Part shown: positions 5,000 through 59,999 of the stretch, piece by piece
How positions within the stretch are numbered: position 1 is the first letter of the stretch
Layout of the letters: each line of letters opens with the position of its first letter
Assembly (NCBI GenBank): GCA_963722305.1
Contig: CAVRKE010000002.1
Location: 40,566 to 104,565, forward strand
Reading direction: 5' to 3'
Source of the DNA: Candidatus Levyibacteriota bacterium
GTDB taxonomy: Bacteria; Patescibacteriota; Microgenomatia; Levybacterales; UBA12049
Length of the DNA: 64,000 nucleotides
Notes under the pieces: model-generated
The model's database searches: none
What the model was told of the DNA's origin: nothing
Seen by the model: the letters and a program-made list of their open reading frames with translations, nothing else
Translations under genes and position numbers: made by a program

Positions 5000-6579
5000 A
5001 ATTGGGCAAAAATATCTTTATTTTGTCCCGGTAAATAAACAGTATCGATAATGTTCGGAGCTGATTTTATTCCATAATACGCACGGATATACAAGGTTGA
5101 ACCGGTTGTCCAATTTTTTGGTTTTTGCCAGGAAGGAGAAACGACCAACGGTTTAAATTTATCACCGGTATAAAATCCAAAATAAAGCGGTATTGTCGAA
5201 GCCCCCAAATTACTGTCAACCACAATATGCTGGAATTCTGGCTGGTATTTTACCGCTTTTGTGACCATTTGTTCATTCCCCGCTCCCCAATCAAGACTGT
5301 TGATAATCGGATAATGCTGGTAATAAAAGTGCAGATAAAAAATAAATTCATAAACAATAAACAACATTATTACGCAGGCTACTAAAATGCGTTTGCCTTT
5401 TAAAAGTTTTCCCATTGCCCAGAGAAAACCATAGGCAACCATTATCGTTAAAGGAACCACCATTAAAAGTGACCTTAACGTGTGGGGACTGGGTACTGTT
5501 GCGGCGGCAGAAAATGGAACAGCAAAGAGCAGGGCAAAAACTGTCAGACTGAAAGGACTTTTCCAGTTTTTGATAAAGAAATACAAACCGATAAGCAGAA
5601 ATGGAAATTCCCAATATGGCATCGGCCCAAAACCGGCTATTTGGTGTCTGCCGATTCCGTCGCCAACGTTAAACAGGAAATTTAAGGAAAAATAGGAAAG
5701 GTAGTTACTTAAAAACATTAGCGGGTAATGAATTATTTTTTCTATTAGCGAAAGATTTGCGTATTGGCTAAAAGCCGAAGTTTCCGCAAAGCGTGTCATG
5801 CCTGCTCCGGTCAGAGTAAACATAATCATTGGGGTAATTAAAATTACGAAAAATATTGAACTTAAGATAATTCCTTTGAGCATTTGTCTTTGTTTAACAA
5901 TAAAAATAACGGCAATAACTAAAAAAGTAGCCGGAACCAAAAGCCTGTAAGCATTATAGGAATAAGTCGTTAAAGCCAGAGATAAAAAGCTTAAAATGAG
6001 TAAGAATAACTGCTTTCTTTTATACGCCAAGATTGCACAAAGTAGTCCGAAAAGATAGAAAGGTAAAGCAATAGTGGCATCAAAACCGGCTCGGGAAAAT
6101 TGGAGGTGCCAGGGGGAAATCGCTAAAAAAAGAGTCGCCGTTAAAGCCAGAATCGGCGGAGCATGTGGCAAATATTTTTTACCAAGCTTGGCCAACTCTT
6201 CAACCAGCCAATAAAAAATTAAGAGTGTTAAAATTCCGCTAACCAGTGCCGGAAAACGGACGGCTAAGTCCGTTCTGCCAAAAATGGCAGTGCCTAAGGC
6301 TGAACCATAAACAAACGCCGGCATTTTATATTCGCCAAAAGCCTTAAACCACAACGGATATCTGACACCATGTTCATCTACGCCTTTAGTTAAAATTGTA
6401 TAGCCGTTATAAGCATCCGATATTTCATCGATGTATAAACCGGGGGGAACAGCCGGCACTTTATAAAGTCTTAAAAAAACACCCAGGGCAAAGATGAGAA
6501 AGAGAAACCAGTACTTATGTTTTTCCACAAAACCAACTGTCATCTCTCTCATTAAAGCCGAAGACCATTCAGAAGTCAA
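4987..6579 (-). CDS. GT-C fold membrane glycosyltransferase (GT39/ArnT/PMT-like)
   Basis: 530 aa polytopic protein with a first-loop acidic motif (PGLYIDEISDAYNGYTIL) typical of the ArnT/PMT_2 family. Confidence 0.6.
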   Translation of the reverse strand: MTSEWSSALMREMTVGFVEKHKYWFLFLIFALGVFLRLYKVPAVPPGLYIDEISDAYNGYTILTKGVDEHGVRYPLWFKAFGEYKMPAFVYGSALGTAIFGRTDLAVRFPALVSGILTLLIFYWLVEELAKLGKKYLPHAPPILALTATLFLAISPWHLQFSRAGFDATIALPFYLFGLLCAILAYKRKQLFLLILSFLSLALTTYSYNAYRLLVPATFLVIAVIFIVKQRQMLKGIILSSIFFVILITPMIMFTLTGAGMTRFAETSAFSQYANLSLIEKIIHYPLMFLSNYLSYFSLNFLFNVGDGIGRHQIAGFGPMPYWEFPFLLIGLYFFIKNWKSPFSLTVFALLFAVPFSAAATVPSPHTLRSLLMVVPLTIMVAYGFLWAMGKLLKGKRILVACVIMLFIVYEFIFYLHFYYQHYPIINSLDWGAGNEQMVTKAVKYQPEFQHIVVDSNLGASTIPLYFGFYTGDKFKPLVVSPSWQKPKNWTTGSTLYIRAYYGIKSAPNIIDTVYLPGQNKDIFAQFWKL

Positions 6580-6588
6580 TATTCGAAG

Positions 6589-7290
6589 TTAAACTCCGGG
6601 GGCCGGATTAGAAGGCGGCGGTGTCGGCGATGTTTCCGCGGGAGCCGCTGTCGCTTCAGCCGGAGCTTCAGTTGCTTCCGGTTGAGCTTCTGCAGCAGTA
6701 GGTGAAGCGGCAGAAGGTTCACCACGAGTTATTGGTATCTCTGTACGAATCCCAATACGTGCCCTATCTTCATAACCTTTGATTATCCTTGCTAGAGTTT
6801 CCAAGGCTGCTCTCGCTTCAGGTGATTCTGGCATTCCATTGGCCTCTGTATCTGTGGTTTTATCAAGTACTTCTCCTGCCTCTGATTGACCTGCTTCTGT
6901 AGCTGACGTTGCTGCTGAAGCATCTGTGGCAATTGCTTGATTCATTCCATGCAAAAGATCAGCTGCTTCTTGAGTCTGATTCGCATCCGCGGTAACTGAT
7001 GCATTCATGTCGTGTAAAAGGGCAGTCGCTTCAGCTACTGGACCTCCGGAAGGTGTAGCCAACACTTGACCTGCTTCTCCAGGTTGTCCTAAGATTACAG
7101 GATTAACTCCGGGTTCTCCAGCCGCTGGTTGAAAAACCGACGTATCCGGTTGCCTTGCTCCTGATGCTGATTGTACTCCCTCTACTGGCGCAGGCGTAGC
7201 AGCAATTGGACTCACATCTGGTTGTTGCCCTACTCCTGTTGGTACTTCTGATGTTCCTCCTGGTCCTCCCATATAATATAGTATGAACAC
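6589..7290 (-). CDS. Pro/Ala/Thr/Gly-rich low-complexity protein (hypothetical)
   Basis: 233 aa with internal repeat LLHDMNASVTADA / LLHGMNQAIATDA. Visibly GC-richer than flanking DNA. Confidence 0.4.
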   Translation of the reverse strand: MFILYYMGGPGGTSEVPTGVGQQPDVSPIAATPAPVEGVQSASGARQPDTSVFQPAAGEPGVNPVILGQPGEAGQVLATPSGGPVAEATALLHDMNASVTADANQTQEAADLLHGMNQAIATDASAATSATEAGQSEAGEVLDKTTDTEANGMPESPEARAALETLARIIKGYEDRARIGIRTEIPITRGEPSAASPTAAEAQPEATEAPAEATAAPAETSPTPPPSNPAPGV

Positions 7291-39050: not shown

Positions 39051-40058
39051 ATGAAAGACGGAGAAAGGAGGCTGGGGCTTTTTGCCACGTTGGCATACGC
39101 AGCAGCAGTCGCTGTTTCTTGTCGCGGAGGTGGCATGGCTCCAAGAACTCCAAGCGTGCCATCGCCAGTCGGTCCTGGTCCGACAGAAATGTTACGCTCA
39201 CCAACAATAGCACCAACGACAGCACCGATTTTAGAACTGACTCCAACGCCTGACAGTAGTAATCCCTCCGGTGTGGCAATGCCGGTTGGTGATATTCCCG
39301 GCTGGCACATGATATTTAGCGATGATTTCAACGCGAATGTACCGGTCGGAGAATTTAGTGGCTGCAGACCTTCTCCTCCTCTAGTTTGTAGGGGACTTCC
39401 TGCTAGCGTACGGGCAAAATGGTGGGCTTATCCGGACGGATGGCCCGACACCAGCGGAAACGGTGAGTATTATCCTTCAACGGTGTTAAGCGAGGAAGGT
39501 AGTATATTAAATATGCATCTTCATACGGCGGATGGAATTCATATGGTAGCAGCTCCGGTGCCTTTATTGCCAAAGCAAGACACTGTTGGCAGTGAAGGCG
39601 GATTGGAATATGGCCGTTATGTGATTCGTTTCCGTGCTGATGCAATCTCCGGTTACAAAACTGCCTGGTTACTCTGGCCGGAAAGCGAAAACGGGCTTAA
39701 AGATGGGGAAATCGATTTTCCCGAAGGGAACCTAACCGGCAACATTGACGCCTTTATGCATTGGCAGAACGGAACATCAGGAAAATCTCATGACGCCTAT
39801 ATGACCGACATAACCTATACGGTCTGGCATACGGCAGAAATTGACTGGACGCCGACATCGGTAACTTTTTTACTTGATGGGGTAAAAGTTGGAGAATCAA
39901 CCGCCAAAATACCCGATACGCCAATGCACTGGGTGCTGCAGACCGAAACATCAACCGTCGGCCCAGTCCCAACTAATACAGCTTCGGGAAATGTTCAAGT
40001 TGATTGGGTTGCCGTATATGTACCCAGTAACAACCCGCAGCCGCAAGCTGCTTTCTGA
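39051..40058 (+). CDS. Glycoside hydrolase family 16-like lipoprotein (beta-glucanase/laminarinase type)
   Basis: Lipoprotein signal RRLGLFATLAYAAAVAVSC. Pro/Thr linker. GH16 catalytic motif E-x-D-x-x-E in DGEIDFPEG. The region is GC-rich relative to its surroundings. Confidence 0.65.
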   Translation: MKDGERRLGLFATLAYAAAVAVSCRGGGMAPRTPSVPSPVGPGPTEMLRSPTIAPTTAPILELTPTPDSSNPSGVAMPVGDIPGWHMIFSDDFNANVPVGEFSGCRPSPPLVCRGLPASVRAKWWAYPDGWPDTSGNGEYYPSTVLSEEGSILNMHLHTADGIHMVAAPVPLLPKQDTVGSEGGLEYGRYVIRFRADAISGYKTAWLLWPESENGLKDGEIDFPEGNLTGNIDAFMHWQNGTSGKSHDAYMTDITYTVWHTAEIDWTPTSVTFLLDGVKVGESTAKIPDTPMHWVLQTETSTVGPVPTNTASGNVQVDWVAVYVPSNNPQPQAAF

Positions 40059-41407: not shown

Positions 41408-43591
41408 ATGAAAAGACAATTTAGAAAATCAATCGCACTGCTCTTAACAGTATTCTTACTGTTTTTCTACGTGGCTTATCCGGTGCTGTCTTACGCCCAG
41501 GACGTTCCGACCGATACGCCAACGCCAACAGTTGATCCTTCGTCAAGCTCAGGACCTTCGGCGCCGACTGATACTCCGACACCAACCGTTGACCCTTCGG
41601 TAACGGACACGCCAACACCAACAGTTGATCCGACAGCTACCGACACTCCAACACCAACCATTGATCCATCGGCAGATCCTACTGATACGCCAACGGTAAC
41701 TCCGACCGATACGCCAACACCTACCACCGACATTTCTAACAATGCTGACGTTAACGACAATAGTCAATCGGATGCCAATAGCGGCGACAATACCATCATT
41801 AGTACCGGCAGTGCAACCGATGATGCCACCCCTTCGGCCGATGACAATTCCCAAAATCCAACCGATGACTCAACGGGAGCAGGTCAAAACGGTTCTTCAG
41901 CTGGCTCATCAATTAACACCGGCGACGCCACTTCGTCAACCTCGATTGTTAATGATGTCAACACTAACTCTATAAATTCCAGCGTTGTCAACCAAACGCT
42001 GAACATTTTTGTCGCCCAAAACGGCGACCTGAATTTGTCCGACCCTTTCACGATTGCGGCCGACGCCATTTCCGCTCATCCGCTGGACAGCGTCATTAAC
42101 GTTTCCGTCACCAATGTCAATAACTATGCCTATATTACCAACGACGTTGCCTCACAAGCTTTAACCGGACAAAACTTGATCAGTACCGCCGACCAAAGCG
42201 CTTCGCTGACTACCGGAAGCGCCGACAGCGCAGTTTCGCTTTTAAACAAAGTCAATTTTACGGTGGTTAATTCGCAAATCCATTTGGTGACAATAAACAT
42301 TTTTGGCAACTTAAACGGCAACATCATTTTGCCCGACCCAACCGCTTCGACCAATTGTTCTGGTTGCGGTGTAAGTACCACTATTAATAATACCGCTACG
42401 GTTAACAATAATCTTAGCTCAACTGCCGATACCGGTAATAATTCAATTGTGGCCTCAGGCAGCGCCACCATTGTAACCGGAAATGCCCAAAGCGCTGTTA
42501 ATACTTTAAACATTGTTAATACCAATCTCTTAGGCGCTAATGCCGAAGTTTTATATATTAACGATTTAGGGACTTGGAATGGCAATTTTATCGGCTGGGG
42601 TAATTTTGCGGCGACCAGTGGCGGAGGAAGCCTGGTCCTTTACAGTCTTACTCCCGGCGCAGGCGGCTCTCCAACCGACCTGACTCAAGCCGGCATTACT
42701 AATACTGCTTTTGTCACTAACAACGTTTCCTCTTTGGCTTTAAGCGGCGGCAATTCGATTAACGGCGGGAATTCTTCGATTACCACCGGCAATGCTTTCA
42801 GCGCCATTTCTTTAATGAATTTTATTAACACTAATTTTATCAACTCGTTTGGTTTTTTTGGCTTTATTAATATTTTCGGTAACTGGACCGGCAATATTGG
42901 CGGAGCCAGTCAGTTTGCCGCTTTGAATGCAGCCAATTCCGATACTTCCCCATCCAGCGACTCGGGGACCGGTAACGCAAATACGACTCAGGACCAAGGC
43001 GGACAGCTAAGTATTGATAATACCAATAATGTCGGCTTATATGCTTTACCCGGCGATACGGTCACATTCTTCATGACAATTAAAAATAGCGGAACCGGTA
43101 AAGTTTATGGGACAAAACTAAACTTGACGCTTATGCATAACGGTCAAGCCTTAGGAACAGCCAGCTTTGCTTTGGGTGATATTGCCGGAGGGCAAAGTGG
43201 AAAAGTCACCACCGGCATTGTTCTTCCCAAAAATACTCTTCCGGGCTATTACATTGCGGTCGCAGATGTTAGCGGCAATGTCGGACCGGACAACAGTTCT
43301 GTTTCGGCCAACTCCAATAGTGACTTTACGGTTTTTGGTAGGACCATTGTCGCCGCTGCCAGCTATAACGGTGGCAACCATCCAAAAACGGCTGTTTTAG
43401 GCTCGACAAATAAAAAAGGTCTGGCTATTAAAAGCGCTGCTGAAAACTTGCTCTATCTTTCCTTAATTTTCCTACTGCTTTTTGTCTATTTCTCTTTAAG
43501 ATTAATCAGAGGCAGAAAATATCTGCTTGAAGTAATCTCCAGCCCCAGTTTTAAAGAAAAACTGGTCTCGATACGGATGCTGCTTTTATAA
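41408..43591 (+). CDS. Large surface protein: signal/TM, Pro-Thr repeat linker, at least 4 copies of the same N/T/S repeat, DUF11/CARDB-like domain, C-terminal TM anchor
   Basis: PTDTPTPTVDPS x6. Repeats such as NTAFVTNNVSSLALSGGNSINGGNSSITTGNAFSAISLMNFINTN. DUF11-like LYALPGDTVTFFMTIKNSGTGKVYGT. C-terminal LYLSLIFLLLFVYFSL. Confidence 0.55.
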   Translation: MKRQFRKSIALLLTVFLLFFYVAYPVLSYAQDVPTDTPTPTVDPSSSSGPSAPTDTPTPTVDPSVTDTPTPTVDPTATDTPTPTIDPSADPTDTPTVTPTDTPTPTTDISNNADVNDNSQSDANSGDNTIISTGSATDDATPSADDNSQNPTDDSTGAGQNGSSAGSSINTGDATSSTSIVNDVNTNSINSSVVNQTLNIFVAQNGDLNLSDPFTIAADAISAHPLDSVINVSVTNVNNYAYITNDVASQALTGQNLISTADQSASLTTGSADSAVSLLNKVNFTVVNSQIHLVTINIFGNLNGNIILPDPTASTNCSGCGVSTTINNTATVNNNLSSTADTGNNSIVASGSATIVTGNAQSAVNTLNIVNTNLLGANAEVLYINDLGTWNGNFIGWGNFAATSGGGSLVLYSLTPGAGGSPTDLTQAGITNTAFVTNNVSSLALSGGNSINGGNSSITTGNAFSAISLMNFINTNFINSFGFFGFINIFGNWTGNIGGASQFAALNAANSDTSPSSDSGTGNANTTQDQGGQLSIDNTNNVGLYALPGDTVTFFMTIKNSGTGKVYGTKLNLTLMHNGQALGTASFALGDIAGGQSGKVTTGIVLPKNTLPGYYIAVADVSGNVGPDNSSVSANSNSDFTVFGRTIVAAASYNGGNHPKTAVLGSTNKKGLAIKSAAENLLYLSLIFLLLFVYFSLRLIRGRKYLLEVISSPSFKEKLVSIRMLLL
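41500..41725 (+). repeat. Imperfect tandem DNA repeats (~33-36 bp units) encoding the PTDTPTPTVDPS linker
   Basis: Repeated CCGAC(C/T)GATAC(G/T)CCAAC(A/G)CCAAC(A/C)GTTGATCC units are visible in the sequence. Confidence 0.5.
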
Positions 43592-47987: not shown

Positions 47988-50837
47988 ATGCTGCCTAGGA
48001 ATTTAGATACGCTACTTTCTCCAAAATCAATTGCCGTGGTTGGTGCCTCCAGTGCGCCGGAAAAAGTCGGGGCAATTGTTTTAAGCAACATTGTTGCTTC
48101 AAAATTTACCGGCCACCTTTATCCTGTTAACCCAAACGAGCAAAAAATAAATAATCTACAGTGTTATCCAAATGTCAAAAGCCTTCCCGAAATAGTCGAT
48201 TTGGCAGTAATTGCCATTCCCTCGAATTTGGTTAACCAGGTTCTGATTGAAATCGGGGAAAAGGGCATTAAAAATGTGGTGGTTTTTAGCGCCGGCTATA
48301 AAGAAATCGGTCCGGACGGAAAAGCTTTGGAAGATGCTCTTATCCAAATTGCCCAAAAATATAATTTGAACATTTTGGGGCCGAATTGTTTGGGGTTTGT
48401 CAACAATCTTTGTCCGGTTAATGTTACTTTCGGCCAACCGGTGCATCAGGAAGGAAACTTACGTTTTGTTTCCCAATCGGGCGCTTTGGCTGCCAGCCTT
48501 TTTGACTACTGTAATGCTACCGGTTTAGGTTTTAGAGAATTTATCACTTTAGGTAATAAAGCGGTGGTTAACGAAAATGACGTTTTAGCGCATTTTTTGG
48601 ACCAAGATAAAAAAATGCCCGATGACGGTAAACAATATCCAATCGGCATGTATTTGGAATCAATTTCCGACGGTAAAGAACTCCTAGAAATTACCCGACA
48701 GCTGTCTTTGAAAAATCCGGTTTTTATTATTAAACCCGGCAAGACTCAGGCTGCCGCCAAAGCAATGCAGTCCCACACCGGCGCAATTGCCGGAGCCGAC
48801 AACGTTTTGCAGGAAGCGCTATTAGAAACAGGGGTCACCCGCTGTGAAACCTTGGAAGATTATTTTGATTTATCCCGCGCGATGTCTTGGGAAAAAGCAC
48901 CAATGGGACCAAAAGTGGCCATCGTTTCCAATGCCGGCGGCCCGGCAGTGATTAGCGCCGACGCGGTGGCAATGGAAGGCTTAGAGTTAGCCGAGTTTGA
49001 TGATGAAACTAAACAGAAATTGCACGAAGTACTGCCCCGCTATGCCAGCGTTTTGGATCCGGTTGACGTCTTGGGAGATGCTTTAGCCGACAGAATTGGC
49101 AAAGCCTGCGAGATCATTTTGCAAACCAATAAAGCACAAAGTTTAGTGGTAATCTTAACTCCCCAAGTGATGACCCAAATTGAAAAAACCGCAGAAAGGA
49201 TCGGAGAACTTGGTAAAAAATATAGTATCCCGATTTTTTGTTCTTTTATCGGCGGCTCACTAATTGCCGAAGGCGAGAAGAAACTAAATGAATTTAAAAT
49301 TCCCTCGTTCAGATTTCCGGAAAGAGCAATTTCCGCCATTAAACAGATGTGGAAATGGAAAGAATGGCAGCAAAAAAATGTCAATTTGACCCTTCCGCAA
49401 CCGAGCTGTCTTCTCTCCGATGACAACAAAAACAAAGTCCGTGCTATCTTAACCAAAGCTTTAACCGCCCACCAAACTTCCTTAGACAATTTAGATGCTA
49501 ACGAAATCCTAAAGTTATCCGGCATTCCTACTCCACCAACCCAAGTCGTTACGACTATCGATGAGGCCAAAAAATTTGCGGCGGAAAATGTTTGGCCGGT
49601 GGTTTTAAAACTTTCTTCGCCCGGGCTTTTACACAAAGCCGACGTCGGCGCGATTATCACCAAAATCGGAAATGACGGTGAACTGGAAACCGCCATGGTT
49701 AATCTTGACCACAAAATTACCGAGCTACCTGCCAATATCCAAGCTCACGTCGTTAAGCAAATCCAAAAAGGCATTGTCTACGGCATTGAAGTCATTGTTG
49801 GCATCAAACGCGACCCAAATTTCGGCCCGGTACTGTTATTCGGCGCCGGCGGAAAATTGGCGGAGCTGATTATGGACAGGAATTTACACCTTCTGCCAAC
49901 GAATTTGGATCAGGTTAAAGAACTGGTGACTCAATCAAAAATCTACATCATGCTTAAAGGTTATCGTGGAGAACCACCGTTTGCCTTAGATAAGCTATAC
50001 GACACTATTATGAAGTTAACCAGTTTAATCGATTGCCTACCGCAAGTTTCGCAAATCGAGATAAACCCTTTAATCGTTACTCAAAACGATGTCTGGGCGG
50101 TTGACGGAAAAGTGGTATTTGAAGAACAGGCAAAACCGGCGGTAAATCCTCCTCAATTTAAAGTTGCCGAAACAATTGAATGTGAAACCTTAGCCGGCAA
50201 CTTCCACAGCTTTGTTTTTAAGATTGAAGCACCGCTTAAGTTTATACCGGGCCAATACATCAGCGTTAAAGTTGCCACTACCCGCATTAACAGTTATTCG
50301 ATTGCCGACCATGACGGTGAAAATAAATTTGGGCTCTTAATTGACACTTCGCCCGGAGGACCCGGCTCCAAATATTTTGAGAACTTAAAAGTCGGCGACA
50401 AGATAACTTACCTTGGACCATTCGGGATATTCACTTATAAACCCGACCCCGTTAAAAATATTTTATTTCTGGCAACCGGTTCGGGTTTGGCTCCTCTTAG
50501 GTGCATTATTGATGACCTTTTGAAAGTCCGGAACGTTCAGACACCGATTACTCTTTATCTGGGGCTAAGATTCCCGGCCGACGTTTTCTGGCAGGATTAT
50601 TTTGCCGACTTAGCTAAACAATATCCAAATTTCCACTTTATCTTGGCAATTTCCAAACCCGACCAAACCTGGAAAGGCAAAACCGGACATATTACCGACC
50701 TGGTTGCGAAGGATTTTCCCGATGCCTCACAATGCTGCGCTTACCTTTGCGGTAATAAATTAATGGTGGAGGAAACAACTCAGATTTTAATTTCCCATGG
50801 TTGTAAAAAAGAGCGTGTGTACACCGAAAAATTCTGA
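47988..50837 (+). CDS. ADP-forming acetyl-CoA synthetase (fused alpha-beta) with a C-terminal ferredoxin-NADP reductase-like FAD/NAD(P)-binding domain
   Basis: CoA-binding SIAVVGASSAPEKVGAIV, succinyl-CoA-ligase-like and ATP-grasp regions (about 700 aa), then FNR-like RINSYSIAD, LGPFGIF, FLATGSGLAP, ERVYTEKF. Confidence 0.8.
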   Translation: MLPRNLDTLLSPKSIAVVGASSAPEKVGAIVLSNIVASKFTGHLYPVNPNEQKINNLQCYPNVKSLPEIVDLAVIAIPSNLVNQVLIEIGEKGIKNVVVFSAGYKEIGPDGKALEDALIQIAQKYNLNILGPNCLGFVNNLCPVNVTFGQPVHQEGNLRFVSQSGALAASLFDYCNATGLGFREFITLGNKAVVNENDVLAHFLDQDKKMPDDGKQYPIGMYLESISDGKELLEITRQLSLKNPVFIIKPGKTQAAAKAMQSHTGAIAGADNVLQEALLETGVTRCETLEDYFDLSRAMSWEKAPMGPKVAIVSNAGGPAVISADAVAMEGLELAEFDDETKQKLHEVLPRYASVLDPVDVLGDALADRIGKACEIILQTNKAQSLVVILTPQVMTQIEKTAERIGELGKKYSIPIFCSFIGGSLIAEGEKKLNEFKIPSFRFPERAISAIKQMWKWKEWQQKNVNLTLPQPSCLLSDDNKNKVRAILTKALTAHQTSLDNLDANEILKLSGIPTPPTQVVTTIDEAKKFAAENVWPVVLKLSSPGLLHKADVGAIITKIGNDGELETAMVNLDHKITELPANIQAHVVKQIQKGIVYGIEVIVGIKRDPNFGPVLLFGAGGKLAELIMDRNLHLLPTNLDQVKELVTQSKIYIMLKGYRGEPPFALDKLYDTIMKLTSLIDCLPQVSQIEINPLIVTQNDVWAVDGKVVFEEQAKPAVNPPQFKVAETIECETLAGNFHSFVFKIEAPLKFIPGQYISVKVATTRINSYSIADHDGENKFGLLIDTSPGGPGSKYFENLKVGDKITYLGPFGIFTYKPDPVKNILFLATGSGLAPLRCIIDDLLKVRNVQTPITLYLGLRFPADVFWQDYFADLAKQYPNFHFILAISKPDQTWKGKTGHITDLVAKDFPDASQCCAYLCGNKLMVEETTQILISHGCKKERVYTEKF

Positions 50838-54487: not shown

Positions 54488-55402
54488 ATGTCTTCAACTC
54501 TCAAAAAAGGCATTTACTTTGCGTTTTTGACTGCTCTTATTTCGGGGGTTTCAAACTTTGTGAATAAAATTGCGGTTGACGTGATTAAACCGCCTCTGGT
54601 TTTTACCGCCGAGAAAAATGCTTTTGTTGGACTACTGATTATCGGTGCGCTCATTGCCACCTGGAAATGGCAGAAAATTAAAAAGCTGAACAGGAAACAG
54701 ATTATTTATCTTTTGGCAATCGGTATTATTGGTGGCTCACTGCCTTTTTACCTCTTTTTTACCGGCCTGTCACAAATTCCGGCTATCAACGGCGCCATCA
54801 TTAATAAAACCTTAATTATTTGGGTAGCAATCTTAGCCATTCCGCTACTGAAAGAGCGAATGTCGCCGCTACTCGTTACTGCCGTGGCACTTTTATTTTA
54901 TGCCAATTTACTTATCGGCGGTTTTGCTAAATTTCAGTTTTCCCAGGGCGAATTATTTGTATTGCTAGCCACTCTGCTTTGGGCGGTGGAGTATGTTTTA
55001 GCTAAAAAAATTCTGCCGGAAGTTGATCCGGATATTGTTACTGCTGCCAGAATGGGTTTTGGTTCCTTAATCTTATTGGCCGCCGCCGCAGTGGTGGCGC
55101 CGGCCGCCTTGGTCAGGGGTTTTATCCCGACACCCACACAGTTTTTCTGGATGGCAACAACCGTTATCCTTTTGTTAGGATATGTGACTACCTGGTATCG
55201 GGCTTTGAAATTTGCGCCCGTGACGCTGGTTGCCTCGGTTTTAGTCAGTGCAACACTGATAACTAACGTTCTTTCGGCCATTTTTGTCACCCACGCTTTA
55301 GACTTAGGATTAGTCATTCAAGCCTTCTTTACGGTTTTAGGGGTTGTCTTCTTGTGGCTGGCTTCGGAAAAGCTTAGTTTTAAAAAAACTGCTGCAGTTT
55401 AA
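54488..55402 (+). CDS. EamA/DMT-superfamily transporter
   Basis: 10 TMs with a duplicated EamA-like architecture. Confidence 0.65.
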   Translation: MSSTLKKGIYFAFLTALISGVSNFVNKIAVDVIKPPLVFTAEKNAFVGLLIIGALIATWKWQKIKKLNRKQIIYLLAIGIIGGSLPFYLFFTGLSQIPAINGAIINKTLIIWVAILAIPLLKERMSPLLVTAVALLFYANLLIGGFAKFQFSQGELFVLLATLLWAVEYVLAKKILPEVDPDIVTAARMGFGSLILLAAAAVVAPAALVRGFIPTPTQFFWMATTVILLLGYVTTWYRALKFAPVTLVASVLVSATLITNVLSAIFVTHALDLGLVIQAFFTVLGVVFLWLASEKLSFKKTAAV

Positions 55403-55411
55403 TATTCGATA

Positions 55412-56821
55412 TTATTTGGCCACTTTAGACCTTTCATCTGAAACTTGTTTAAGATAAGGAAAAACCTCAATAATAACCTCAGGTTCTACCCGATGACCAA
55501 CCTTACCTTCATAAAATCCGTATCTGTTAATCATTTCTCCCAATAATAAATTAAAATGCATCGATTTTCCATTGGTTAAGTTGTGCACCTCGACATCTGT
55601 CCGACCACCCGTATCGTCATGAAAAGGAGAAAGAACTGCTGATACATAATTGCCCAACACGTCTACTTTATATTCACTCCCACGAAAAGCAAACTCTTCA
55701 CCAAATCCAAAATTTACTATCATTGCAACGTATCTAAGAGGTAGTGCCAAATCCTGATGAGTTAACCCAAGGCTTTGGACAAATTCGTTATCTACGGCAA
55801 GAACATCAATTAATGAATCGTCCTTTGAAATAAAACCGCCAAATGAAGCAGCTCCGCCTAGTTTTCCCGGCCGCATTTCATCCTCCAACTCTGCTAAAGA
55901 TTGGCCATTGAGGCCGTTTAAATTCCTAATTACCTCGGTACTATTAGTTCCACAGATCATAAATGATGGTGAAGATTTATCTGGATAAGGAGTCTGATCT
56001 TCTAAGCCCAACTCCTTTGCAGTAAGTTCTCTAGATTGCTGTATTTCTCCTAGGCTGGCTATACCAAGAGAATAAAATAATTCCCCGGTTAATAAGTTGC
56101 TCCTTAAACTAAGACTTATTGTTGGCGACAATGCTTTTGGATATTTATTGACAGCAAGTATTTCCGTTGTTTCATCAAGTTGATAATATTGAAATATTCT
56201 TTGATCAATTGGTGTTAAAAGCTGTAAGAGGACGTCATCTTTAATGATAGCAATTACATCTTGTTGTCCTCCGTCTTTGATTTTTATTTTCCAAACCCCC
56301 GAATCGTCTGGATCTTCTGTAAAATCGGCTGCTGCCAGCTGAGCAGTTATTGGCAATAATGATAATTGTTGTAATTTAGCTGTTAACTCATCTTCCGGTT
56401 TAGCCAAATAAGAATTCATCGATCCGTCTGTATAACTTCCTGTTGCTAAAACTCCATCTTTATTCGTTTGCAACACTTGAATTGCGGGTGTATTGCTAAA
56501 CTCGTCGAATCTACCAACAGAAATTGCCTTTACCTGTCGGGGGTCGATAAAATGTTCGTAATCAATAAAAAAATTGTACCTTCCGCTAACAGGATCTATA
56601 GTTAAAACAAACCCTTCTTTATCTTGATGGGCTAAATAAGCACTACCTCCGACAGACTTAAAACCTAATTCTGTTAGATGTTGCCTTCTTTGTTCTGCTA
56701 ATTGACTTGGCATTGGTCTTTCTCCCATATTGGTCGTAAAATTATACCCCGGCACGTTCATTTTGTCAACTATAGGCTTAAGGTTAGAGGTTTTTGAGTA
56801 CCTTCTTCGTCCAGTATTCAA
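55412..56821 (-). CDS. Uncharacterised protein (469 aa)
   Basis: No signal peptide or TM. No motif I can assign. An internal ...SFMICGTNST... is the only weakly Ntn-hydrolase-like feature. The true start may be MNVPGYNF at about 56761. Confidence 0.4.
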   Translation of the reverse strand: MNTGRRRYSKTSNLKPIVDKMNVPGYNFTTNMGERPMPSQLAEQRRQHLTELGFKSVGGSAYLAHQDKEGFVLTIDPVSGRYNFFIDYEHFIDPRQVKAISVGRFDEFSNTPAIQVLQTNKDGVLATGSYTDGSMNSYLAKPEDELTAKLQQLSLLPITAQLAAADFTEDPDDSGVWKIKIKDGGQQDVIAIIKDDVLLQLLTPIDQRIFQYYQLDETTEILAVNKYPKALSPTISLSLRSNLLTGELFYSLGIASLGEIQQSRELTAKELGLEDQTPYPDKSSPSFMICGTNSTEVIRNLNGLNGQSLAELEDEMRPGKLGGAASFGGFISKDDSLIDVLAVDNEFVQSLGLTHQDLALPLRYVAMIVNFGFGEEFAFRGSEYKVDVLGNYVSAVLSPFHDDTGGRTDVEVHNLTNGKSMHFNLLLGEMINRYGFYEGKVGHRVEPEVIIEVFPYLKQVSDERSKVAK

Positions 56822-57488
56822 GATTATTTATTTCTTCTTCCTCGAGAATTTTGACTACCATTTGCCAATGCACTGCTACCGTATCGCCCTTTTTCAGATT
56901 TGGAGCTAAAGCTGGATTAAACGGAATTTGAGTTTTGATTTTACTAAGTGAATATTTATTGCTTGATTTTTTCAATGAATTAAGATTAATAGTTGTCTTG
57001 TTTTTCGCAATTGACCGAACCTCTCCCCATCTAATCATGCAATTGTTGATCGAATTAAGATTAAACGGTACTGCACCACTGGCTTTACCGACACCGACGT
57101 GTAAAACGTGAAATAAATGACTGGGGATAAATTGTTTAGGCTTTTTGAGTTTTAATTCTTCGATAAAAAAATCCGGTACTCCCTGTTTCTTAAAATAATC
57201 TAACAAAACCGAATAATCTTTGGCTTTGAATTTTTTGAGAAGCTTATTTCCCAACCAATAACTTTCAATTACTGGATAGGAAAACTTTGGACGTTTGGTA
57301 ATTTTAGCAATTGTCTGAAGATAAGGATGCAAAACAATAAACTTCGTTACTTCTTCCTCAACGCCTACACATGTACCCTTGCTGATGCAATTTTTGAACT
57401 TGAAAGTGGCTGTTTTTTTGCCACAATAACCCAACGCATTGGGTGGCAAGGAAAAGCGTGATTCCAATTGTAAAGCGGTGTCTTTCAC
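56784..57488 (-). CDS. Uncharacterised Lys-rich protein with an N-terminal four-Cys cluster (234 aa)
   Basis: GYCGKKTATFKFKNCISKGTCVG. Co-directional with, and overlapping or abutting, the 55412 gene. Confidence 0.4.
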   Translation of the reverse strand: MKDTALQLESRFSLPPNALGYCGKKTATFKFKNCISKGTCVGVEEEVTKFIVLHPYLQTIAKITKRPKFSYPVIESYWLGNKLLKKFKAKDYSVLLDYFKKQGVPDFFIEELKLKKPKQFIPSHLFHVLHVGVGKASGAVPFNLNSINNCMIRWGEVRSIAKNKTTINLNSLKKSSNKYSLSKIKTQIPFNPALAPNLKKGDTVAVHWQMVVKILEEEEINNLEYWTKKVLKNL

Positions 57489-57574: not shown

Positions 57575-57991
57575 GTGCTGGATAAATCAATGAATATTTA
57601 TGTTTTTGGTAATGTTGATGTGCCCGAGGATAACCTGGCTTTTATAGTTGCCGATAAACTCAGGGGTGCAATTCCTCAGATTAAATTTGTGAAAGTAAAA
57701 CCAAATGAGGACCTGCCGTTTATTGGCAAGAAGCGGGTTGTAATCTTGGATGCAATTGAAGGCATTGAAAAGATAACTGAATTGAAAAACGCGGATTTAG
57801 ACAAGTTGGTTTTATCTAAAAGCCTAACGGTCCATGATTTCGATTTAGGCTTCCAACTAATGTACTTACAAAAAATCGGCAAGCTCGGAGATGTCATGAT
57901 TATCGGTTTACCGCTGAGAAAAAAAATCAACTATTCGCGGGTCCAGTCTATCTTGAGAAAATTAGTGGCGCAGGACATGCAGGGGTCGTAA
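57575..57991 (+). CDS. Hydrogenase maturation endopeptidase (HycI/HybD-like)
   Basis: IYVFGNVDVPEDNLAFIVADKL, VVILDAIEG, LTVHDFDLG and IIGLP match the protease family pattern. Adjacent to the hydrogenase. Confidence 0.6.
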   Translation: MLDKSMNIYVFGNVDVPEDNLAFIVADKLRGAIPQIKFVKVKPNEDLPFIGKKRVVILDAIEGIEKITELKNADLDKLVLSKSLTVHDFDLGFQLMYLQKIGKLGDVMIIGLPLRKKINYSRVQSILRKLVAQDMQGS

Positions 57992-59232
57992 GCCCGGACG
58001 ATTTTCTCCGCCGCCAAATGAAGAAAGGCTTCATCTTTGTCTAAATTTTCGTTAAAATATTTTTTTAAGTCGTTTTCAATTGTAATTTGGTTTTGTGAAG
58101 TCGGAACGATCACATCGTAATCCTCAATCAGCCCTTTGTCGTTAATTTTTGCCATGTGGTATAAAGTGCCGCGGGGCGCTTCGACTACCCCGACTCCCGT
58201 ACCGGCCTGAGGCGCTTTTCTGACCGGTTGTTCGGCTGTAATTTTAATTGTTTTTAAAATATCTAGGGCATCATCAACGCACTGCAAAACTTCGAGCGCC
58301 TGCGCCAGATTATTGTGGTACAAATTATTTGACGGAAAGACTTTAAGATATTCTTCCACGTCCGCTTTCGTCTGTGGGTTGAGTAAATCTTTATTAAAGT
58401 TTACACGCGCCAATGCGCCAACCAGATAATCCTCCTTGCCTGCGGAAAAAACGTAGCCGTTTGACTCCGAATACGGAATAACCACTTCTTCTAAGAAACT
58501 TAAGAAATCTTTAGCTTGAATCCTTTTGCCGCCGGAACTAACCAAATCGCCCTCCAAAAAATCAAACTGTTTATCGTTTCTTAGATATAAATAATCGGAA
58601 TTTCTAACTAATGACTCTTTCCAGTCATAAAAAGTTTTTATCCCCCGCAAAACCTGCGGTCTGATTGCTTGGAGTTTGGCAATTAAATCGGGAAATTTGG
58701 ACGGGTCAGCTGTTCTTAAAAATCCGCCGACTGTCGGAAACGGCGCGTGAATGGCCGCCCCGATTACGACATTAGTTATTTCCGTCCCGACTTTTTTAAT
58801 ATCAAACGAGTCATGTAGCAGCACATGCCCGGGACTATCGTGGTCATCCGGAATATCCAAAATCGAATCAACGCCCAAAACATCCGGCAGAGTGAAAAAA
58901 TACAAATGCAAAGCGTGGTCTCTAATCATTAACCCGTCGTAGGCTAAACGACGCAGTAGTTTTGTCTGTTCGGAAACTACAATCCCCTCTGCCATTTCAA
59001 TCGCTTTAATCGAGGCAAAAAGATGGGCAACAGAACAGGTCCCGCAAATTCTGGATAGAAATGAAGGCACCGCAATAATCGGCTTTCCTTTGACAGCCTG
59101 TGTATAAAAACGCCTGTAGTCCTGGATAATGAATTTTAAGTCGCTGACCTTATCGTTAGCAACGGTGACTTTAAGTCCGGCCGAGCCTTCAATTTTGGTA
59201 ATGTTATCAATGGTAATTTCGCCTGAGTGCAT
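57931..59232 (-). CDS. [NiFe]-hydrogenase large subunit
   Basis: N-terminal RICGTCSVAH. C-terminal DPCMSCATN followed by a 9-aa extension (processing site). Confidence 0.85.
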   Translation of the reverse strand: MHSGEITIDNITKIEGSAGLKVTVANDKVSDLKFIIQDYRRFYTQAVKGKPIIAVPSFLSRICGTCSVAHLFASIKAIEMAEGIVVSEQTKLLRRLAYDGLMIRDHALHLYFFTLPDVLGVDSILDIPDDHDSPGHVLLHDSFDIKKVGTEITNVVIGAAIHAPFPTVGGFLRTADPSKFPDLIAKLQAIRPQVLRGIKTFYDWKESLVRNSDYLYLRNDKQFDFLEGDLVSSGGKRIQAKDFLSFLEEVVIPYSESNGYVFSAGKEDYLVGALARVNFNKDLLNPQTKADVEEYLKVFPSNNLYHNNLAQALEVLQCVDDALDILKTIKITAEQPVRKAPQAGTGVGVVEAPRGTLYHMAKINDKGLIEDYDVIVPTSQNQITIENDLKKYFNENLDKDEAFLHLAAEKIVRAYDPCMSCATNFLKIDWTRE

Positions 59233-59736
59233 TTAGATAATTCCGAAAAGCTTTAAGTATTTTTGTAAAATTGTCTGAAAGGTAGTGACGTTCATCGGAC
59301 AACCCGGCACTACGTCGTCAACCTTAATTACCTCGTCCAGCTTTTTGACTTTCTGATTGTAATTAAAATCCTTTAAGTACCTTTGGATTTTCTCGTTTAA
59401 ATCTTTGTCTACAAACTGGTTTCTGGTGGCCGAGGGCAGCCCGGTAACGGCGCAGGCGCCGATTGCCACGACGTATTTGGCATTGGCGCGGATTTTTTGC
59501 ATTTCTTCCTCCTGTTTTTGCGAAGACGCGGCCCCCTCGATAAACGCCACGTCCAAATTGGTCATGTCGTTTTTCGTCTTTAGAGCCCGCATGTATCTAA
59601 ATTCTACCACCTTTTTCCATTCATCCAAATTGTCGTTTAGAAGCTCCGTCAAAAGAATGGTCGAATCCTCACAACAGGTAAAACTAAACCAACCAACCAC
59701 TAATTTCTTTTTTTGAGAAGTTTGAACAGAATCCAT
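59233..59736 (-). CDS. [NiFe]-hydrogenase small subunit (NuoB-like fold)
   Basis: WFSFTCCEDS, GACAVTG and VPGCP cysteine motifs. Confidence 0.8.
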   Translation of the reverse strand: MDSVQTSQKKKLVVGWFSFTCCEDSTILLTELLNDNLDEWKKVVEFRYMRALKTKNDMTNLDVAFIEGAASSQKQEEEMQKIRANAKYVVAIGACAVTGLPSATRNQFVDKDLNEKIQRYLKDFNYNQKVKKLDEVIKVDDVVPGCPMNVTTFQTILQKYLKLFGII

Positions 59737-59795: not shown

Positions 59796-59999
59796 ATGTG
59801 TATTGCCGCTCCCGGAAAAGTAATTGCCATTGAAGACAAAAAAGCCCTGATTGATTATCAGGGTGAAACAAGATACGCCATGCTGGCCGATGAAAAGGTT
59901 AAAATTGGTTCCTATGTTTTAGTGCAAATGGGAATTATTATTGAGGTTTTAACTCAGAAAGAAGCTCGGTCCGCCGCCAAAGCCTGGAAAAGTAATTAA
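59796..59999 (+). CDS. hypC: Hydrogenase assembly chaperone HypC/HupF
   Basis: N-terminal MCIAAPGKVIAI. 67 aa. Confidence 0.8.
   Translation: MCIAAPGKVIAIEDKKALIDYQGETRYAMLADEKVKIGSYVLVQMGIIIEVLTQKEARSAAKAWKSN

Follow-up and report, generated by a model that had tools for sequence, protein, structure and literature searches.

Canonical [NiFe]-hydrogenase maturation requires HypA-F. HypC and its relatives HybG and HupF are the maturation chaperones of this pathway (Pfam PF01455; structures 2z1c and 2ot2); they bind the apo-large subunit and HypD and carry Fe(CN)2CO. HybG and HupF are familiar examples of specialized HypC paralogues. The essential Cys of HypC is its N-terminal residue (Cys2 after removal of Met), and its conserved His (E. 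coli His51) lies in a GxxVLVHxG motif.

In Patescibacteria (CPR), the hydrogenase called hyd2 has a truncated small subunit with a mean length of 164 aa and may "support function with unknown genes"; its assembly and partner proteins are explicitly an open question (Jaffe et al., 2020, BMC Biol, PMC7304191). A protein family that concerns us here, DUF6390, was neither singled out nor interpreted in that study (PMC7304191). The stretch of DNA that we analyzed (the window, 64,000 nt) encodes a hydrogenase of this CPR hyd2 type. The motifs RICGTCSVAH and DPCMSCATN are present in the translation (57931..59736, minus strand) and, as in the described clusters (PMC7304191), the small subunit is short (167 aa), HypC-like families lie in the context, and neither a beta nor a gamma subunit stands out. 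A ferredoxin gene, recognized with Pfam, is also present in the block. Scans of the window for tRNAs and Rfam families gave no matches.

Between an EamA transporter gene and the HycI and [NiFe]-hydrogenase genes (57575..59736) lie two genes on the minus strand (Table 1). The first-pass annotation, which described this position correctly, read the pair as an operon and as the window's best candidate for a genuinely unknown system. We consider it likely that the region instead holds two functionally independent genes, one a DUF6390 member that belongs to the hydrogenase block and the other a separately transcribed insert. No experimentally established function exists for either protein, and to that extent the earlier description holds; as a single two-gene system it does not.

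Table 1. Features of the locus (positions are those of the window)
Feature	Coordinates	Strand	Description	Basis
EamA (DMT) transporter gene	54488..55402	plus	convergent with the 433-aa gene	Pfam PF00892
Downstream ORF as first listed	55412..56821	minus	469 aa, TTG start	
Downstream gene, revised	55412..56713	minus	433 aa, ATG start	P0001 100% identical, 433 aa
C-terminal YGFYEG domain	55415..55993	minus	about residues 241-433	alignments A1, A3
N-terminal half of the 433-aa protein	55994..56713	minus	about residues 1-240	
Cys254 of FMICGTNST (P0001 numbering)	55954..55952	minus		
Shine-Dalgarno-like GGGAGA	56721..56726	minus	7 nt upstream of ATG 56713	read from sequence
Predicted sigma-70-type promoter, perfect TTGACA-N17-TATAAT	56741..56769	minus		scan, 12/12 matches
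Upstream gene, DUF6390 member	56784..57488	minus	234 aa, GTG start	ORF list, Pfam
DUF6390 HypC-like OB-barrel and C-terminal helix	56787..57041	minus	residues 150-234	
His207	56870..56868	minus	aligned to HypC His51	
Cys150	57041..57039	minus	aligned to HypC Cys2	
DUF6390 N-terminal all-helical domain	57042..57488	minus	residues 1-149	
Cys40	57371..57369	minus	N-terminal domain, invariant	
Cys34	57389..57387	minus	N-terminal domain, invariant	
Cys22	57425..57423	minus	N-terminal domain, invariant	
HycI-type hydrogenase maturation endopeptidase gene	57575..57991	plus		Pfam PF01750
[NiFe]-hydrogenase large subunit	57931..59232	minus	433 aa	Pfam PF00374
[NiFe]-hydrogenase small subunit, truncated	59233..59736	minus	167 aa	Pfam PF01058
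HypC, canonical length	59796..59999	plus	67 aa, starts MCIAAPGK	tblastn with E. coli HypC

Both ORFs are real genes, since each has many homologues. In the ORF list they overlap by 38 nt; however, the listed length of 469 aa for the downstream product is a mechanical over-extension, and the identical database entry (P0001) begins at ATG 56713. This start is favored because homologues begin 10-25 residues ahead of a conserved LxxxGF motif, which fits ATG 56713. The revised start, the ribosome-binding site, and the promoter thus remove the apparent overlap: a 70-nt spacer with the promoter inside separates the two genes. Thus, they are co-directional as first reported but neither overlapping nor abutting. 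On its other side, the DUF6390 gene is divergent from the HycI gene, with an 86-nt spacer between them.

The upstream product had been described as lacking assignable motifs. It matches Pfam DUF6390 (PF19927) with 114.2 bits (cutoff 25, E = 8.6e-33) over its full length (residues 9-232 on model positions 9-235 of 244), and compared to that family it is a plain member with no differences. We found 437 homologues. Two earlier remarks on its composition were confirmed: the protein is Lys-rich (15% Lys, pI 9.8), and the Cys cluster GYCGKKTATFKFKNCISKGTCVG, whose first residue is residue 20, is genuine and important. Cys22, Cys34, Cys40, and Cys150 are the only four cysteines in the protein, and all are invariant in an alignment of 29 sequences (A2). 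The helical N-terminal domain, which contains three of these cysteines together with an invariant His124 and a GVGxASG motif, is unique to the DUF6390 family; using hhalign, we detected no relation between this domain and E. coli HypA, B, D, E, F, or HycI. The literature that we searched contained no mention of DUF6390 or PF19927. IMG names some family members "hydrogenase maturation factor". PADLOC searches with both proteins of the pair gave no match, and PHROGs searches gave a single match (E = 0.049) with no named function.

The C-terminal third of DUF6390 is a HypC-type OB-fold chaperone domain that retains the equivalents of Cys2 and His51. In an AF2 model of the protein (pLDDT 90, pTM 0.89), an OB-fold beta-barrel is followed by a C-terminal helix, as in HypC, HybG, and HupF. 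Profile-profile comparison with the CPR HypC family gave E = 3.8e-6, with HypC covered from residue 3, and alignment to E. coli HypC placed Cys150 on Cys2 and His207 on His51. As in HypC, the Cys opens strand 1 and is followed by a PG/WG turn, and the aligned His is carried by a GDxVxVH motif. Motif searches recovered the Cys150 equivalent in 118 of 120 homologues and His207, which is invariant in alignment A2, in at least 111 of 120. The relationship is distant: there was no match to Pfam HupF_HypC at E ≤ 0.1 or to the NCBIfam HypC models at E ≤ 1, BLASTP against the HypC encoded in the window found nothing, and hhalign against E. coli HypC alone fell below significance. Unlike HypC, DUF6390 has an insert of ~15 residues in the barrel and a Cys-rich helical domain of 149 residues in front of it. 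Its Cys is therefore internal. As Asn precedes Cys150, there is no internal start at this position, and since the essential Cys of HypC is N-terminal, the chemistry of DUF6390 may differ.

The gene neighborhood resembles that of a HypC protein in that DUF6390 lies in a hydrogenase cluster beside a HycI protease gene. In 56 Patescibacteria genomes, we found a fixed gene order: HypC, HydS, HydL, HycI, DUF6390, EamA, ferredoxin, OFOR. In 49 of 52 loci, the gene immediately upstream of DUF6390 is HycI, and HydL, HydS, and HypC are present in 38 of 39. DUF6390 is thus a fixed member of the hydrogenase/fermentation block in Patescibacteria with hyd2, a group-3b-related enzyme; this strict order and the domain analysis are what we add to the earlier description (PMC7304191). 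DUF6390 shares its cluster with a separate HypC of canonical length. In the window, this HypC has Gln where E. coli HypC has His51, as do the cluster HypC proteins in 47 of 47 cases, whereas DUF6390 retains the His.

From the fold, the two aligned residues, and the gene order, we infer that DUF6390 is a hydrogenase-maturation-type accessory protein of CPR hyd2, most likely acting in maturation of the large subunit. The HypC-like part would attach to the apo-large subunit, carry the active-site iron unit, or do both. Cys150 and His207, aided by Cys22, Cys34, and Cys40, are putative metal ligands, and the cluster HypC, which has lost its His, and the HycI protease are candidate partners. Being HypC-like but equipped with an additional Cys-rich domain, and with a gene that always accompanies HycI and hydSL, DUF6390 would be a concrete candidate for a factor in the assembly of the minimal, two-subunit hyd2.

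One alternative is that DUF6390 is a permanent Fe-S electron-transfer subunit of hyd2, taking the place of the absent beta subunit or of the distal clusters that the truncated small subunit would otherwise provide. It has exactly four cysteines, all invariant, and its gene is on the hydSL strand and always nearby, in a system with a truncated small subunit and unclear beta and gamma subunits. We regard this as unlikely, since the cysteine spacing (C22-x11-C34-x5-C40 ... C150) is not of the ferredoxin type and there was no Fer4 match in Pfam, the domain with Cys150 is HypC-like and keeps the HypC His as well, the block already has a dedicated ferredoxin gene, and between DUF6390 and hydSL lies the HycI gene in the opposite orientation.

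A bolder form of the maturation role, which we consider distinctly unlikely, is that DUF6390, as a fused protein, is by itself a complete iron scaffold on which genome-reduced Patescibacteria assemble the [NiFe] active site. Its helical domain with three cysteines would then do in cis the job that the cysteine and Fe-S domain of HypD do in trans for HypC, and the maturation pathway of hyd2 would be a shortened, non-canonical one, with HypD, E, and F reduced or absent. Consistent with this proposal, a search of 903 kb around 57 hyd2-type clusters (±10 kb flanks) revealed no homologues of HypA, B, D, E, or F, and the cluster HypC lacks His51. The literature searched held nothing specific on the Hyp gene content of CPR genomes.

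The neighboring transporter gene offers another possible partner. EamA, in other genomes normally the gene right next to DUF6390, is present in 49 of 51 DUF6390 loci and follows DUF6390 within 150 nt in 38 of these 49; by synteny counts, DUF6390 is linked as tightly to EamA as to the hydrogenase. In one locus (L045), the pair persists with no hydrogenase in the 5 kb upstream that are shown. DUF6390 might then work with EamA, for example in the handling of a metal or metabolite, with gene order alone connecting it to the hydrogenase. We judge this very unlikely. Because the two genes are convergent, they are not part of one transcript; the HypC-like fold, in which Cys and His are conserved, suggests a role in maturing the hydrogenase; and as L045 covers only 5 kb upstream, its hydrogenase may lie elsewhere.

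The DUF6390/EamA junction hosts unrelated orphan genes in several other loci (L005, L007, L008, L009, L012, L025, and L033), and the 433-aa gene is, as judged from these sequence comparisons, a lineage-specific insertion at the same junction. The insert in L008 is unrelated to the 433-aa protein. Around the 433-aa gene, there is no break in composition, and the only repeats, a hallmark of recent insertion, are short and at chance level. The gene is probably transcribed from its own strong predicted promoter. The TTGACA-N17-TATAAT in the spacer, whose -35 hexamer begins 15 nt past the DUF6390 stop codon, is the sole perfect match in the window, where 0.02 are expected, and orthologues of the gene in other contexts carry their own promoters with 10-11 of 12 matches. 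We found no terminator between the DUF6390 and 433-aa genes, so read-through could still produce some co-transcription.

The first-pass annotation had named a lack of conserved pairing among the findings that would refute its proposal, and no such pairing of the two genes was found. That they form one operon for a novel two-component system, such as a metal-binding partner and an enzyme, is extremely improbable: although they are co-directional and 70 nt apart with no terminator-like site detected between them, and both proteins are without characterized function, homologues of the 433-aa protein occur in 0 of 56 DUF6390 loci, DUF6390 occurs in 0 of 80 metagenome loci that encode the C-terminal domain of the 433-aa protein (as does any hydrogenase gene), the closest full-length homologue (P0002, 54% identity) adjoins a DsbD/thioredoxin gene instead, the spacer holds a perfect independent promoter, and the supposed catalytic nucleophile of the downstream protein is not conserved. 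Further family members also sit in unrelated contexts. For the downstream gene, our result is thus mostly corrective, placing it outside the hydrogenase system.

The nucleophile in question was the Cys of the FMICGTNST stretch, which had been noted as faintly resembling the nucleophile sites of Ntn-hydrolases. The stretch is present, starting at residue 287 of the 469-aa ORF. We aligned 12 homologues, one of which (P0013) does not include this N-terminal segment; in the 11 that cover the position, Cys254 is replaced by Gly (consensus GGxNST). As the Cys is Gly in all covering homologues, the Ntn-hydrolase reading fails. In addition, the protein does not have the alpha-beta-beta-alpha sandwich of Ntn-hydrolases, and there was no match to an Ntn-type fold.

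The 433-aa protein is acidic (pI 4.7), lacks a signal peptide, and is cytoplasmic-looking. Searches of Pfam and NCBIfam, and PDB profile searches with alignments of the protein and its C-terminal domain (A1 and A3), gave no significant match. According to the AF2 secondary structure, the N-terminal half consists of two helix-plus-antiparallel-sheet modules, both opening with an LxxxGF-type motif; domain mapping found this half in only ~20 of 160 family members. The Foldseek comparison that had been suggested returned a weak match of the N-terminal half to the PepSY C-domain of YpeB (5boi; E = 3.6e-3, probability 0.57), where tandem PepSY-like modules show the same repeated layout, and no fold match for the C-terminal domain. 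The protein is thus without a characterized relative, with PepSY-like modules as its nearest, faint structural echo.

The C-terminal domain, which we call YGFYEG, is ~175 aa long and defines a large, widespread family (663 cluster representatives) that is missing from Pfam; a look-up of the clusters returned neither names nor taxonomy. Invariant or near-invariant positions (P0001 numbering) are Asn257, Ser290, Asp308, Asn309, His319, Ser362, Phe364, Asp366, Tyr398, Gly399, Phe400, Tyr401, Glu402, Arg408, and Pro411. The many polar residues among them hint that the domain could have enzymatic activity or bind a specific ligand. Pfam searches with 26 members gave no significant match, and 18 long multidomain members matched only LRRs and, weakly, one alpha/beta-hydrolase. 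The domain was absent from the viral contigs searched, and neighborhood clustering of 27 long loci revealed no recurrent partner. Elsewhere, most members are secreted, tandemly repeated, or fused to LRRs. That the domain is a novel enzyme fold deployed at the cell surface is conceivable but distinctly unlikely.

The upstream minus-strand gene encodes a 234-aa member of the DUF6390 family, with a full-length match to Pfam PF19927 (114 bits, E 8.6e-33). The 437 homologues from a word-indexed search share 58-98% identity with it and come from lineages such as Uhrbacteria, WWE3 and Levyibacteria; IMG names four of them (4/437) 'hydrogenase maturation factor', and no paper in the literature searched mentions DUF6390 or PF19927. 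Scanning with one genome per species, we obtained 56 DUF6390 loci, all from Patescibacteria-type MAGs or genomes, and compared them with the window's proteins by tblastn, fractions counting loci with enough flank. DUF6390 is strictly linked to the CPR group-3b-related [NiFe]-hydrogenase hyd2, to HycI and to HypC. The order is fixed: HypC(-) HydS(+) HydL(+) HycI(-) DUF6390(+) EamA(-) ferredoxin(-) [FNR-like(+)] OFOR-beta(-) OFOR-alpha(-) ACD-FNR(-). HycI lies upstream of DUF6390 in 49/52 loci, HydL, HydS and HypC were found in 38/39, and EamA lies downstream in 49/51, at a distance of <=150 nt in 38. The sole long-flank exception, from a Collierbacteria bin (L045), keeps DUF6390-EamA (5115..6700), has a CNNM/CorC-type protein gene upstream and holds no hydrogenase gene within 5 kb.

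At 167 aa, the window's small subunit fits the CPR-specific, group-3b-related hyd2 clade, in which this subunit is truncated and averages 164 aa (PMC7304191). The same paper describes as unknown which subunits partner this enzyme and which genes support it. A type-3b-like hydrogenase has also been noted in the complete WWE3 RAAC2 genome (PMC3812714), which is our locus L009.

Several other features of the block were observed. A 949-aa ORF encodes an ADP-forming acetyl-CoA synthetase (CoA_binding, Succ_CoA_lig, Ligase_CoA_2, ATP-grasp_5) fused to a C-terminal FNR-like module (FAD_binding_6 and NAD_binding_1, residues 731-930). In most of the 56 loci a gene of this type is the last of the hyd2/OFOR block. 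Its product may serve as the NAD(P)-binding partner that is apparently missing from hyd2. The HycI and large-subunit genes are convergent and overlap by 61 nt (57931..57991), with an overlap of ~50-60 nt in most of the 56 loci. The large subunit ends in ...DPCMSCATNFLKIDWTRE. His or Arg precedes the HycI cleavage site in canonical large subunits, and the window's protein has Asn in its place. In a second assembly of the locus from the same organism (L002, ENA contig_174004), gene calls are fragmented, with the hydrogenase, OFOR and ACD genes split and DUF6390 called at 213 aa, which points to frameshift errors.

Genes of the window, in window coordinates
Feature	Coordinates	Strand	
335-aa ORF, GH16 glycoside-hydrolase domain	39051..40058	+	
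727-aa ORF without Pfam match	41408..43591	+	
949-aa ACD-FNR fusion ORF	47988..50837	+	
EamA transporter gene	54488..55402	+	
433-aa protein with YGFYEG domain	55412..56713	-	
DUF6390 gene, 234 aa	56784..57488	-	
HycI-type protease gene	57575..57991	+	
[NiFe]-hydrogenase large subunit	57931..59232	-	
[NiFe]-hydrogenase small subunit	59233..59736	-	
HypC, 67 aa	59796..59999	+	

The DUF6390 protein is Lys-rich (15%; pI 9.8) and has four Cys in all. In an alignment of 29 sequences (mean column identity 57%), all four (Cys22, Cys34, Cys40 and Cys150) are invariant, as are His124, His207 and the GVGxAS and RWG motifs. AlphaFold2 predicts a confident single unit (pLDDT 90, pTM 0.89): an all-helical domain over residues 1-150 leads into a beta-barrel (153-214), and a helix (217-233) closes the chain. 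Profile-profile comparison with 47 HypC proteins of these clusters (probability 87%, E 3.8e-6) paired residues 151-234 with HypC from residue 3 onward. When the protein is aligned by MAFFT to E. coli HypC (NC_000913.3), Cys150 corresponds to Cys2, the WG turn to the PG turn, and GDTVAVHW to GQWVLVHVGF, which places His207 with His51. The C-terminal domain is thus HypC-like, with both HypC signature residues. The similarity lies below ordinary sequence detection by Pfam, NCBIfam, BLASTP against the window's HypC and hhalign against E. coli HypC. All 47 cluster HypC proteins retain Cys2 but carry Gln in place of His51, and it is the HypC-like domain of DUF6390 that still has the His. The HypC role may be shared between the two proteins.

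We infer that DUF6390 acts in large-subunit maturation. The HypC-like domain would serve as a docking or iron-carrying module, and the three-Cys helical domain could give extra ligands. Unlike in the HypC family, which is defined by an N-terminal Cys, the Cys of DUF6390 is not N-terminal; since the family models also give no match, DUF6390 should not be classed as a HypC member and resembles in function, at most, a HypC paralogue that carries an extra domain. Less likely is that DUF6390 is an Fe-S electron-transfer subunit, since its Cys spacing is not ferredoxin-like and the block already encodes a ferredoxin. Also less likely is a partnership with EamA, whose gene is convergent with that of DUF6390. 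In the window and the 56 loci (903 kb, flanks that are a fraction of each genome), tblastn at E<=0.01 found no match to E. coli HypA, B, D, E or F; E. coli HypC does match in the same 903 kb. DUF6390, a HypC-like variant with a Cys-rich N-terminal domain and a link to hyd2, a hydrogenase that is itself poorly understood, is a directly testable maturation candidate.

The first-pass annotation had taken this gene and the downstream gene for a two-gene operon and a candidate unknown system, a claim for which lack of conserved pairing was the test set beforehand. The sequence itself is real, and the pairing is not conserved, so the claim fails that test. The 433-aa protein has no tblastn match in any of the 56 syntenic loci, and hydrogenase, HycI and DUF6390 genes are absent from 80 metagenome loci holding its C-terminal YGFYEG domain. 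The downstream gene is an insertion unrelated to the hydrogenase block; neither repeats nor compositional signs of recent transfer were found around it. Other orphan genes, mutually unrelated, occupy the DUF6390/EamA junction in L005, L007, L008, L009-L011 (WWE3-type), L012, L025 and L033, and genes are likewise inserted at the HycI/DUF6390 or HydL/HycI junction in L013, L019, L048 and L058. The L008 insert shows no relationship to the 433-aa protein. The junctions on either side of DUF6390 are hot spots where unrelated, lineage-specific genes insert. Most of these genes have no Pfam match; among the inserts are genes for an RDD-family protein and for a Cys-rich secreted protein of 1043 aa, as well as a cassette that combines ArsR-like and thioredoxin-like genes.

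A word-indexed search found only 13 relatives of the 433-aa protein; exhaustive phmmer at E<=1e-3 gave 663 cluster representatives, 340 of them at E<=1e-10. The part conserved in this family is the C-terminal domain (~175 residues), with the aligned motifs GGxNST, LNG, MRPG, GFLG, DN, LGLTHQ, SPFxD, YGFYEGK and YRVxP. It occurs alone after a signal peptide, as 2-4 tandem copies, joined to LRR or HEAT repeats, and within very long proteins without a Pfam match; the window's N-terminal module precedes it in only ~20/160 proteins. Contigs with the N+C architecture lacking a signal peptide have 41-51% GC (L066, L080-L083, L130, L131), and those with the short secreted form 54-65%. A DsbD/thioredoxin gene adjoins the closest orthologue (54% identity), other members sit in unrelated housekeeping contexts, and 27 long loci showed no recurrent neighbor. 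The domain was not found in viral contigs. It represents a sizeable family not described by Pfam.

In the AlphaFold2 model of the 433-aa protein (pLDDT 78.7 overall, 85-95 across most of the C-terminal domain), an alpha/beta domain comes after two modules, each built from a helix plus an antiparallel sheet. Neither the protein nor this domain has a match in PDB profile searches, Pfam, NCBIfam, PADLOC or PHROGs. Its sole Cys, within FMICGTNST, had been suggested as a nucleophile and does not hold up, being Gly in 11/11 aligned homologues covering the position (the homologue P0013 is without this segment). Invariant or near-invariant polar residues are Asn257, Ser290, Asp308, Asn309, His319, Ser362, Asp366, Glu402 and Arg408 (numbered as in P0001, the database copy). 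Given such residues, the LRR fusions and how often signal peptides occur, the most reasonable guess is an enzyme or specific ligand-binding module, which would be extracytoplasmic in most lineages; any specific activity proposed for it would be doubtful.

Both minus-strand ORFs of the first-pass annotation are present in the ORF list (55412..56821, 469 aa, TTG start, and the 234-aa ORF, GTG start; 38 nt overlap), the peptides it quoted occur in their products, and it correctly placed a transporter gene on one side and the hydrogenase locus on the other. The 469-aa ORF was over-extended: in public gene calls the product has 433 aa and begins at Met37, ATG 56713 (P0001, 100% identity). A conserved LxxxGF motif sits 10-25 residues after the homologues' starts, and the minus strand reads ...TAA(56786..56784)-N14-TTGACA-N17-TATAAT-N14-GGGAGA-N7-ATG. 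Because gene calls, homologue starts and this promoter/GGGAGA layout place the start at ATG 56713, the two genes do not overlap. The downstream gene has its own predicted promoter and ribosome-binding site. The promoter scores 12/12 in a promoter scan, and the perfect TTGACA-N17-TATAAT is the sole copy in 64 kb (0.02 expected from shuffles); near-consensus promoters (10-11 of 12) also precede orthologues in other genomes. A scan of the spacer found no terminator-like site, and therefore read-through from DUF6390 may occur. Directly 5' of the -35 hexamer lies the heptamer CCTATAG (56770..56776, minus strand). Two orthologues whose contexts are unrelated (L001, L081) have it at the corresponding upstream position, and it could represent a conserved element of regulatory or UP-like type.
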